Assembly (NCBI GenBank): GCA_965371465.1
Contig: CBDUYM010000012.1
Coordinates: forward strand, 15,821-79,820
Direction of reading: 5' to 3'
Length of the DNA stretch: 64,000 nt
From: an uncultured Alphaproteobacteria bacterium
Lineage (GTDB): Bacteria > Pseudomonadota > Alphaproteobacteria > CBDUYM01
Below, piece by piece: positions 6,706 through 20,504 of this stretch (position 1 is the first letter of the stretch; every line of letters begins with the position of its first letter). The notes beneath the pieces are model-generated. The model was not told the origin of the DNA. It did no database searches and was given only the letters and a program-made list of their open reading frames with translations. The position numbers and the translations under genes were made by a program.

Positions 6706-6729
6706 GGGACCCAGAGTTCGATCCACGAC

Positions 6730-6755
6730 CGTTCGCCCTGAGCCTGTCGAAGGGC
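6730..6755. repeat. Solo half-copy of the palindromic intergenic repeat (cgttcgccctgagcctgtcgaagggc)
   Basis: Matches the right arm of the hairpin elements at 20014-20073 and 20395-20477; translates to VRPEPVEG in the overlapping spurious ORF; no partner arm seen upstream. Confidence 0.6.
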
Positions 6756-20000: not shown

Positions 20001-20013
20001 TGGGGGCATCCCC

Positions 20014-20073
20014 CCTTCGACACGCTCAGGACGCTCGAATATACTCCCCCGTGCGTCCTGAGCTTGTCGAAGG
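20014..20073. repeat. Palindromic intergenic repeat element, copy 1 (hairpin: ccttcgacacgctcaggacgc / gcgtcctgagcttgtcgaagg)
   Basis: 21-bp arms, 18-nt loop, read directly; right arm translates to VRPELVEG in spurious ORFs. Confidence 0.8.
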
Positions 20074-20100
20074 AGGGCAACCCATTTCCCGGAGGCCAAC

Positions 20101-20382
20101 TTGTTTTATGTATACATTTTGAAGTGCGTGGATGGGTCTTATTATACGGGCCATACAGACAATCTGGAAAGCCGGATTGTTCAGCATGCTTCAGGTAAAG
20201 GCAACGGCTATACATCCACAAGGCTGCCCCTGGAACTCGTATTCACTGCGGACTTTGAGACGCGCGCTGATGCGCTTGAGCGTGAACGGCAAATCAAGGG
20301 ATGGAGTAGGCGTAAAAAAGAGGCATTGATAGCTGGAAATCTGGATCTGCTTCCAGCACTGGCAGACACATCAAAGACTTGA
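20101..20382 (+). CDS. GIY-YIG nuclease family protein (small, stand-alone)
   Basis: Canonical motif YVYILKCVDGSYYTGHTDNLESRIVQH...GKG...TS; 93 aa. Confidence 0.85.
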   Translation: MFYVYILKCVDGSYYTGHTDNLESRIVQHASGKGNGYTSTRLPLELVFTADFETRADALERERQIKGWSRRKKEALIAGNLDLLPALADTSKT

Positions 20383-20394
20383 GTCTGTGGCCAT

Positions 20395-20477
20395 CCTTCG
20401 ACAAGCTCAGGACGAACGGGGAGGGGTATGCTTTGGTTTGATGCAGTCCTCCGTTCGTGCCTAGAGCTTGTCGAAGG
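20395..20477. repeat. Palindromic intergenic repeat element, copy 2 (hairpin: ccttcgacaagctcaggacgaacgg / ccgttcgtgcctagagcttgtcgaagg)
   Basis: 25/27-bp arms, 31-nt loop; shares flanks (catcc before the left arm, a[ag]gcaaccc after the right arm) with copy 1. Confidence 0.8.
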
Positions 20478-20504
20478 AAAGCAACCCGAAAGGAGCGCGC
20501 AATC

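Follow-up and report, generated by a model that had tools for sequence, protein, structure and literature searches.

The 64,000-nucleotide stretch of an uncultured Alphaproteobacteria bacterium analysed here (GenBank assembly GCA_965371465.1, contig CBDUYM010000012.1, positions 15,821 to 79,820; hereafter the window) carries a small gene for a 93-residue GIY-YIG nuclease, which is flanked on both sides by hairpins made of one short, oriented repeat unit. Gene and repeat are linked in many bacterial phyla, the stem of the unit covaries, its two strands are not equivalent, variant forms of the repeat match on the two sides of a gene, and the whole module is present in the window genome and absent from the genome of a relative. 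We consider it probable that the protein is a site- and structure-specific endonuclease resembling SsnA of Neisseria meningitidis (Chenal et al., Nat Commun 2025; PMC11893778), and that its cognate site is the repeat flanking its own gene.

Association of the nuclease gene with the repeat

Copies of the repeat were gathered from 39 viral contigs, at least 120 genome loci and 80 metagenome loci; these counts are samples of the matches listed, not totals. Isolates and closed chromosomes are included, and many of the loci are metagenome bins, so that the spread over phyla depends in part on binning. The 80 metagenome loci were picked solely for encoding a homolog of the window protein (53-70% identity), and in 58 of them the main core of the repeat is found at most 150 nt from the gene. 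The core lies upstream in (-) orientation in 44 loci, downstream in (+) orientation in 50, and on both sides, in this fixed inverted orientation, in 39. Near the gene its density is 4.75 per kb, compared with 0.16 per kb in the remainder of the same contigs, a 29-fold enrichment (p=2e-84). Most of the 22 loci without the main core bear variant units of the same scaffold in the same places. The canonical layout thus consists of a unit with its tail outward, 20-45 nt of sequence, the gene, a further 0-40 nt, and a second tail-outward unit. When loci are picked solely for the repeat, the gene abuts it in 5 of 120, one of these being a frameshifted copy that keeps its flanking units (L065). The original prediction had likened the arrangement in the window to repetitive extragenic palindromic (REP) elements around a REP-associated tyrosine transposase (RAYT), and had asked whether GIY-YIG genes adjoin copies of the repeat more often than chance would allow. 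They do, and the likeness is borne out from the side of the gene and from that of the repeat. No other enzyme family recurs beside the repeat in the genome loci; the neighbours that do recur are phage structural genes, in related viral contigs, and generic short-chain dehydrogenases (SDRs).

In the window, the nuclease gene stands between a carboxymuconolactone-decarboxylase (CMD) family gene and an SDR gene, all three on the + strand (Table 1). Its product matches the GIY-YIG domain PF01541 over residues 1-73 (Pfam, E=4.3e-19), in agreement with the assignment made when the open reading frame (ORF) was first pointed out. It is the only GIY-YIG gene in the window; a second, weak tblastn match at 53618-53743, within an 894-aa ORF, was dismissed as noise. 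The two hairpins amount to four copies of one repeat unit, and a solo unit elsewhere in the window is the fifth. A search with the 20-mer core, allowing at most 3 mismatches, gives four matches, including the solo copy at 6734-6753, where 0.01 are expected from shuffles. Folded as single-stranded DNA (ssDNA), the left hairpin reaches -29.8/-32.6 kcal/mol (z -8.2/-9.6 against shuffles) and the right hairpin -31.3/-30.7 kcal/mol (z -7.4/-6.6). The inner arms of the two hairpins, 20047-20081 and 20387-20421, form a 35-nt inverted repeat (91%) that encloses the gene. The inverted repeats and the folds substantiate the hairpins originally described in both spacers, the direct repeats D1 and D2 account for the flanks that these were said to share, and the solo copy some 13 kb away was likewise correctly recognized.

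Table 1. Positions of the module, the nuclease gene and the repeat units within the window
Feature	Position	Strand	Description
Inserted module (hairpin, GIY-YIG gene, hairpin)	20001-20486	+	Alignment A3 against the syntenic locus L240, gap ~490 nt
Nuclease gene	20101-20382	+	93 aa, TTG start; single-domain GIY-YIG nuclease, UPF0213-like clade
Ribosome-binding site GGAGG of the nuclease gene	20091-20095	+	Sequence reading; 6 nt before the start
Left hairpin, units U1 and U2 tail to tail	20010-20077		Arms 20010-20037/20050-20077, 28 nt, 89% complementary, 12-nt loop
Right hairpin, units U3 and U4 tail to tail	20387-20485		Arms 20387-20408/20464-20485 (inverted repeat I3)
Unit U1	20013-20038	- (folding strand)	Scaffold scan; degenerate tail tcgagcg, X = CGTG
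Unit U2	20049-20074	+	ccgtgcg-TCC-TGAG-CTTG-TCGAA-GGA; canonical left-end unit, 27 nt before the start codon
Unit U3	20394-20419	- (folding strand)	Perfect CCGTTCG tail; canonical right-end unit, 12 nt past the stop codon
Unit U4	20451-20478	+	Degenerate, CCGTTCG-TGCC-TAGAGCTTGTCGAA-GG; direct repeat D1, core match with at most 3 mismatches
Solo unit	6729-6754	+	ccgttcg-CCC-TGAG-CCTG-TCGAA-GGG; compensated stem CCC/GGG; shortly past a stop codon

The position and orientation of U2 recur in 44 of the 80 homologous loci and those of U3 in 50, and the four-unit layout of the window is found again in seven loci (L170, L204, L218, L197, L199, L216 and L242). U4 and U2 have a 3' extension, GCAACCC, in common. 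In the window (20060-20083 compared with 20464-20487) as well as in L170, L204 and L218, the downstream unit duplicates the upstream one together with the first 10-17 nt of the 5' untranslated region (UTR) of the gene. The downstream unit has the appearance of a truncated second copy of the element, lying head to tail behind the first. In the window, the copied 5' UTR stretch puts a GGAG-containing sequence before the downstream SDR gene.

The module is bounded by the stop codon of the CMD-family gene on the left and the ribosome-binding site of the SDR gene on the right. In a related genome (L240), whose SDR protein is 83% identical, the synteny is the same, with an opposite-strand gene for a 456-aa FAD oxidoreductase followed by the CMD and SDR genes. 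The distance from the CMD stop to the SDR start is 14 nt in L240 and 504 nt in the window. A module of ~490 nt is therefore present in the window genome and absent in the L240 genome. The original prediction would have been contradicted by a relative that keeps the gene free of the repeat; here the gene and both hairpins are missing together. At the contig end of a third relative (84% identity), a (+) unit precedes the SDR gene by 40 nt.

Across genomes, 88 gene loci fall into 68 groups of genomic context, the gene being found, for instance, between rnc and era and between nrdR and an RNA methyltransferase gene. Each of the 48 plasmid or chromid records that bear the gene has it in a single copy per replicon, and the repeat occupies 7-15 places per record in Comamonas and Sphingobium. 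At 59 doublets of the repeat, we found no target-site duplication and no direct or complementary flank signature. In seven Sphingomonadales-type loci (L178, L181, L183, L191, L203, L221 and L242) the nuclease gene directly precedes a gene for a SpoU/TrmH-like RNA methyltransferase, and is often read through into it. In Bacillus subtilis (L246, listed alongside), yazA is flanked by two methyltransferase genes, trmNF for tRNA and rsmI for rRNA. Small nuclease genes thus recurrently adjoin RNA methyltransferase genes.

Structure and variants of the repeat unit

Comparison of the copies shows that the true unit is shorter than the hairpin arm and is itself structured. Its consensus on one strand is CCGTTCG-NNC-TGAGCYTGTCGAA-GNN. 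The scaffold comprises a 5' tail (CCGTTCG), one half of a covarying stem of 3-4 bp, the motif TGAG-X-TCGAA, and the other half of the stem. Of 148 distinct units, 146-147 form the three base pairs that flank the 13-mer, and the double compensatory changes number 13, 32 and 40. The stem has a covariation score of 0.309, compared with 0.155 in shuffles (none of 500 reaches 0.309) and at most 0.11 in slid controls. Wobble pairs are one-sided, with G.T outnumbering A.C by 36:1 at stem pair 3 and by 120:14 at pair 4. The folding strand is therefore the TGAG...TCGAA strand, which has the CCGTTCG tail at its 5' end. Within the motif, TGAG and TCGAA could stack as a T-A pair, a tandem of sheared G.A and A.G pairs and a G-C pair, and X would then be the apical loop. 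Both GA steps of the unit lie in a 5'-Y-GA-R-3' context, which favours the tandem sheared G.A geometry.

The variant families retain the tail, the stem, TGAG and TCGAA, and differ only in the middle, where X is CTTG, CCTG, GTA, GAA, CGAAG, CCCG or a self-complementary insert of 15-40 nt. The left and right units of one gene have the same type of X; the gene on a plasmid of Sphingomonas parapaucimobilis, for example, is flanked by CGAAG units. All five loci with a GTA loop (L169, L177, L211, L231 and L237), and no others, encode a protein with a C-terminal AWG..NPLP tail. Synonymous codon variation indicates that this tail (AWG..NPLP..L) is a real protein motif, and within the protein it is a candidate reader of the apical loop. 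An exact 21-mer of the repeat is common to Sphingomonadales, Chloroflexota, Gamma- and Betaproteobacteria and others, with associated proteins that are just 50-69% identical.

Adjacent units form 81 inverted doublets with their tails outward, 32 with their tails inward, and 21 direct pairs. The two units of a doublet usually differ in their stem triplets, TCC/GGA being combined for example with TGG/CCA (L041, L047, L051, L076, L089, L095 and others). Each unit is able to fold alone, and the doublet is not one perfect long palindrome. Such a heterodimer habit, with unlike stems in a doublet, has been reported for REPs too. Head-to-tail arrays with a period of ~36-48 nt, resembling clusters of bacterial interspersed mosaic elements, occur in L140 (1634-2333, at least 15 copies), L200, L212 and L107 (5981-6136). 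In L200 and L212, upstream and downstream of the gene, the array is translated as a PSTPVRPEPVEG-type repeat that is fused to the next gene. In translation, the repeat of the window reads VRPELVEG, and many homologs have read-through tails and N-terminal extensions in which the translated repeat appears as PSTSSGRT, FDKLRTNG or LSLSKD; the repeat is presumably a source of spurious ORFs in genome annotation.

A scan of the window against Rfam at the gathering score gave no family, and with a permissive E up to 10 only miRNA-like noise. The combination of UGAG and CGAA recalls domain 2 of the hammerhead ribozyme, and on reading the sequence we rejected a hammerhead or other ribozyme, as the CUGANGA core is absent. 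Two groups of related viral contigs (L010-L012, L017, L019, L022 and L039; L006, L021, L023, L033 and L038) have a unit at what appears to be the same intergenic position between diverged flanking genes, reflecting either strong conservation or repeated targeting of that spot.

Relation to the Ssn proteins and to other repeat systems

The window protein has the residues Y5, Y14/Y15, G17, R25, H29 and E62, which are invariant in alignment A1. Searched against the PDB, the profile of its clade finds only the UPF0213 proteins BH0048 (E=1.5e-22) and EF2693 (E=1.9e-18). The AlphaFold model (predicted local distance difference test score, pLDDT, 88) consists of one compact domain, for which Foldseek returns the same two proteins at the top and Slx1 nuclease domains next. 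Slx1 is a structure-specific nuclease. YhbQ and YazA, which have been placed in the Slx1 family (PMC7017083), share 36% and 41% of their residues with the window protein; YazA scores 85.7 bits on the hidden Markov model (HMM) of the window clade compared with 28.2 on that of Ssn. NCBIfam, PADLOC and PHROGs gave no match for the window protein. By analogy, it is predicted to be a stand-alone GIY-YIG nuclease of the UPF0213 (YhbQ/YazA, Slx1-like) branch. UPF0213, YhbQ and YazA are its nearest relatives in sequence and fold, whereas the association with the repeat is confined to the DGSYYTGHT subclade, YhbQ and YazA themselves being without such repeats.

The system had been put forward as not known to have been described, which does not stand: one of the same kind, with another protein clade and another repeat, appeared in 2025 under the name Ssn/NTS (Chenal et al., 2025; PMC11893778). 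SsnA of N. meningitidis is a 94-aa single-domain GIY-YIG protein assigned to CDD family cd10448; it binds the hairpin repeat NTS, which makes up part of dRS3, when this is presented as ssDNA and on one strand only, the cut falls upstream of the repeat, and double-stranded DNA and RNA are not cleaved (PMC11893778). The Ssn enzymes are reported as the first endonucleases to cut solely ssDNA at specific sites, and the family is said to comprise many NTS-Ssn pairs of differing specificities (PMC11893778). The authors likened the NTS-ssnA-NTS arrangement to an insertion sequence (IS) or a REP/RAYT system, and make no mention of UPF0213, of its CDD model cd10456 or of YhbQ (PMC11893778). Apart from the Ssn paper, the literature that we searched, which excludes most subscription journals, contains no relevant account of the present repeat, of the peptides it encodes, or of GIY-YIG or YhbQ proteins with REP-like repeats.

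The two systems agree in having a bare GIY-YIG protein of ~94 aa, a gene flanked by oriented hairpin repeats, further dispersed copies of the repeat, and a repeat with a conserved 5' tag and a hairpin of which one strand only is the right one. The frequencies of association are also similar, with the SRM repeat near 71% of SsnA homolog genes and on both sides of 42% (PMC11893778), compared with 72% and 49% in the window clade. Of the genomes rich in the Ssn repeat, 81% have the nuclease gene. The repeats themselves are unrelated, that of Ssn consisting of CGTC and a ATTCCCGC/GCGGGAAT stem and that of the window of the CCGTTCG tail, a free stem of 3-4 bp and TGAG-X-TCGAA. The SRM pattern (HGTCWYN0-2YYVSBRHN0-5WNVSBRGN0-2RNCYNB) matches NTS and is found 6 times in 1.4 kb of the gonococcal ssnA locus; the window and all 618 units are free of it, and 295 kb of homologous loci contain 4 matches.

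Ssn proteins have been delimited by four features: a single GIY-YIG domain of ~94 aa, SRM repeats around the gene, cd10448 as the top CDD hit together with a place in the Ssn clade, and a blastp match to N. meningitidis SsnA that covers at least 75% at E<=1e-10 within the proteome of each genome (PMC11893778). In size and domain content the window protein conforms (93 aa, one PF01541 domain). It is 37% identical over 78 residues to gonococcal SsnA, which is itself 96% identical to the N. meningitidis SsnA proteins (P0250-P0252) and was used as the reference; this alignment scores 42 bits, with E 2e-11 for the two sequences compared alone. At proteome scale, 42 bits would by an arithmetic estimate give E ~1e-5 and miss the published threshold. 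In hhalign the two proteins are matched with a probability of 97.8%. When HMM cross-scores are taken as a proxy for assignment to cd10448, 120 SsnA homologs and 120 window-clade proteins separate fully, with 146-209 bits on their own model and 31-57 on the other; the window clade accounts for 146-181 on its own and 31-57 on that of Ssn. In a neighbour-joining tree, which serves as part of the same proxy, the window clade groups with YhbQ and YazA, apart from the 120 SsnA homologs. Our verdict from these sequence comparisons is that the window system is probably a sister, Ssn-like system that lies outside the Ssn family as defined and belongs to a kind already published. Sphingomonads bear both small GIY-YIG types, SsnA-like and window-type (pNL2 of Novosphingobium aromaticivorans, L248; S. 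parapaucimobilis, L242), and the two nuclease-repeat systems may coexist in one order, possibly in one genome.

The REP, or REP doublet (REPIN), and RAYT systems resemble the present one in a single-copy gene flanked by inverted tagged hairpins, in dispersed copies that are mostly inverted doublets with often differing stems, and in showing no target-site duplication. In contrast, RAYT (TnpA-REP) is an HUH Y1 transposase and the window enzyme is a GIY-YIG protein only, and the tag and the hairpin differ. REPs with a CGTC tag are, like the window repeat, tagged palindromes common in Alphaproteobacteria (Di Nocera et al., 2013; PMC3733652). They have no dedicated transposase, and CGTC-1 in Neisseria is dRS3 (PMC3733652), about half of whose copies have been redefined as NTS (PMC11893778). 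We rejected identity with the CGTC REPs, which have an 8-9 bp stem starting with AT, a loop of 4-5 nt and a CCA tail, none of which is seen in the window unit. GIY-YIG homing endonucleases such as I-TevI and the Seg proteins have the same catalytic domain and a selfish-looking gene placement. They have an additional domain for DNA binding and are located in introns, inteins or phage genomes; the window protein, a bare 93-aa domain encoded in a bacterial metabolic operon spacer and without a PHROGs or PADLOC match, was not assigned to them. An IS, or a miniature transposable element with inverted repeats (MITE), served by a DDE transposase was likewise discarded, given the lack of a flank signature at the 59 doublets and of a transposase domain.

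Proposed mechanism and competing explanations

We hypothesize that the substrate of the nuclease is an oriented single-strand hairpin, consisting of 5'-CCGTTCG, a stem of 3-4 bp that is free in sequence as long as it is complementary, TGAG, the variable loop or hairpin X at the apex, TCGAA and the second half of the stem. With one unit at each end of the gene and the tails outward, each DNA strand would have a foldable unit at its 5' end. The enzyme would recognize the folded unit on ssDNA and, judging from SsnA, cut in the tail or just 5' of it. It would presumably act on one strand, for which the one-sided wobble pairs are the sole indirect support. Doublets without a gene and solo units elsewhere in the genome would be further substrates.

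Several points weigh against this proposal. Cleavage by SsnA has been shown experimentally, whereas the nuclease activity of the window clade is carried over from SsnA by analogy, and the tandem G.A geometry of the unit is a prediction from its base sequence. The repeat vastly outnumbers the gene, and the DNA retrieved for each of the 39 repeat-bearing viral contigs contains no nuclease gene; on these copies the enzyme could act only in trans, unless the repeat were independent of it. The catalytic core does not co-diverge cleanly with the type of repeat, as solely the C-terminal tail tracks the loop. Sphingomonas paeninsulae (L244) has the gene between rnc and era without a recognisable repeat, and in Methylobacterium bullatum (L243, 1300-2000) the units are reversed, with their tails toward the gene. 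In the M. bullatum units the apical insert is long and the tail (CCTCATCC) differs.

The abundance of repeat copies with no nuclease gene nearby would be accommodated if the repeat were independent, for example a terminator, an RNA-stabilising hairpin or a MITE of another enzyme, that accumulates by the gene, with the nuclease serving in general DNA repair like YhbQ. The units are strong hairpins, often located shortly downstream of genes, E. coli YhbQ is annotated as an exonuclease of the DNA-damage response, and one Caulobacter COG2827 gene is under SOS control (PMC1839093). Passive accumulation, however, would hardly produce units that keep one orientation and spacing at either end of the gene across phyla, a 29-fold enrichment, or variants that match on both sides; it also leaves unexplained why YhbQ and YazA have no such repeats and why no other gene family recurs beside the repeat. 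The orientation of solo units is not significantly biased with respect to transcription (17 sense, 11 antisense, with crude ORF calling), and the strand able to fold is not the same at the two ends of a gene, which is at odds with a single role at the level of mRNA. We regard this explanation as very improbable. That the window protein is an ordinary, somewhat divergent Ssn member (cd10448), adding nothing to Chenal et al. (2025), seems to us rather improbable. It has in its favour the same size and single-domain build, the same repeat-gene-repeat layout, the similarity to neisserial SsnA in blastp and hhalign, and the diversity of pairs reported for the family. The match to SsnA nevertheless falls below the authors' threshold at proteome scale, the HMM cross-scores are far lower than the scores of each clade on its own model, in both directions, the SRM pattern is absent from the units and the window, and the paper leaves the UPF0213 side unmentioned.

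A purely selfish, autonomous element, IS-like or homing-like, with the nuclease as its mobility enzyme and the gene-less doublets as its MITE- or REPIN-like derivatives, we consider unlikely. It would readily explain the empty site in L240, the many contexts of the gene, its insertion into tight operon spacers (CMD-SDR, rnc-era, nrdR-methyltransferase), the frameshifted copy that keeps its flanking units, the bracketing of the gene and right unit by direct repeats of the unit and part of the 5' UTR in the window and three other loci, and the predominance of tails-outward doublets. Against it speak the occurrence of the gene once per replicon, the lack of a target-site duplication or flank signature at doublets, and the conserved synteny upstream of the RNA methyltransferase gene in seven Sphingomonadales loci, which resembles vertical inheritance, as in domesticated RAYTs. 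Furthermore, we know of no strand-transfer activity of a hydrolytic GIY-YIG nuclease.

For the Ssn-like endonuclease that we favour, the module may either be selfish and mobile or have been domesticated, for example to limit recombination or the uptake of ssDNA. Mobility is suggested by the empty site, the many contexts, the pseudogene copy and the direct repeats that bracket the gene. Domestication, as argued for RAYTs and SsnA, is suggested by the single copy, the Sphingomonadales synteny and the absence of strand-transfer chemistry. We tentatively raise the possibility of a second GIY-YIG lineage, on the UPF0213/Slx1 side, with its own cognate ssDNA hairpin, in which the hairpin-gene-hairpin unit of ~400-490 bp is itself mobile, inserts into operon spacers and encodes no protein but a bare 93-aa hydrolytic nuclease. 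If this were true, the unit would represent a class of prokaryotic mobile DNA outside the IS, REP-RAYT and homing-endonuclease schemes, and would suggest that the cutting of hairpins was ancestral in the YhbQ/YazA/Slx1 branch.

Tools are being built on the Ssn enzymes, and a sister clade would broaden that toolbox. Its recognition hairpin is built differently, with a tail, a free stem, a probable tandem G.A and a swappable apical loop, and enzymes paired with loop variants occur naturally. The large and unexplained UPF0213/YhbQ/YazA family would gain a testable substrate, and a repeat that is kept as an exact 21-mer across several phyla would have a candidate partner enzyme.

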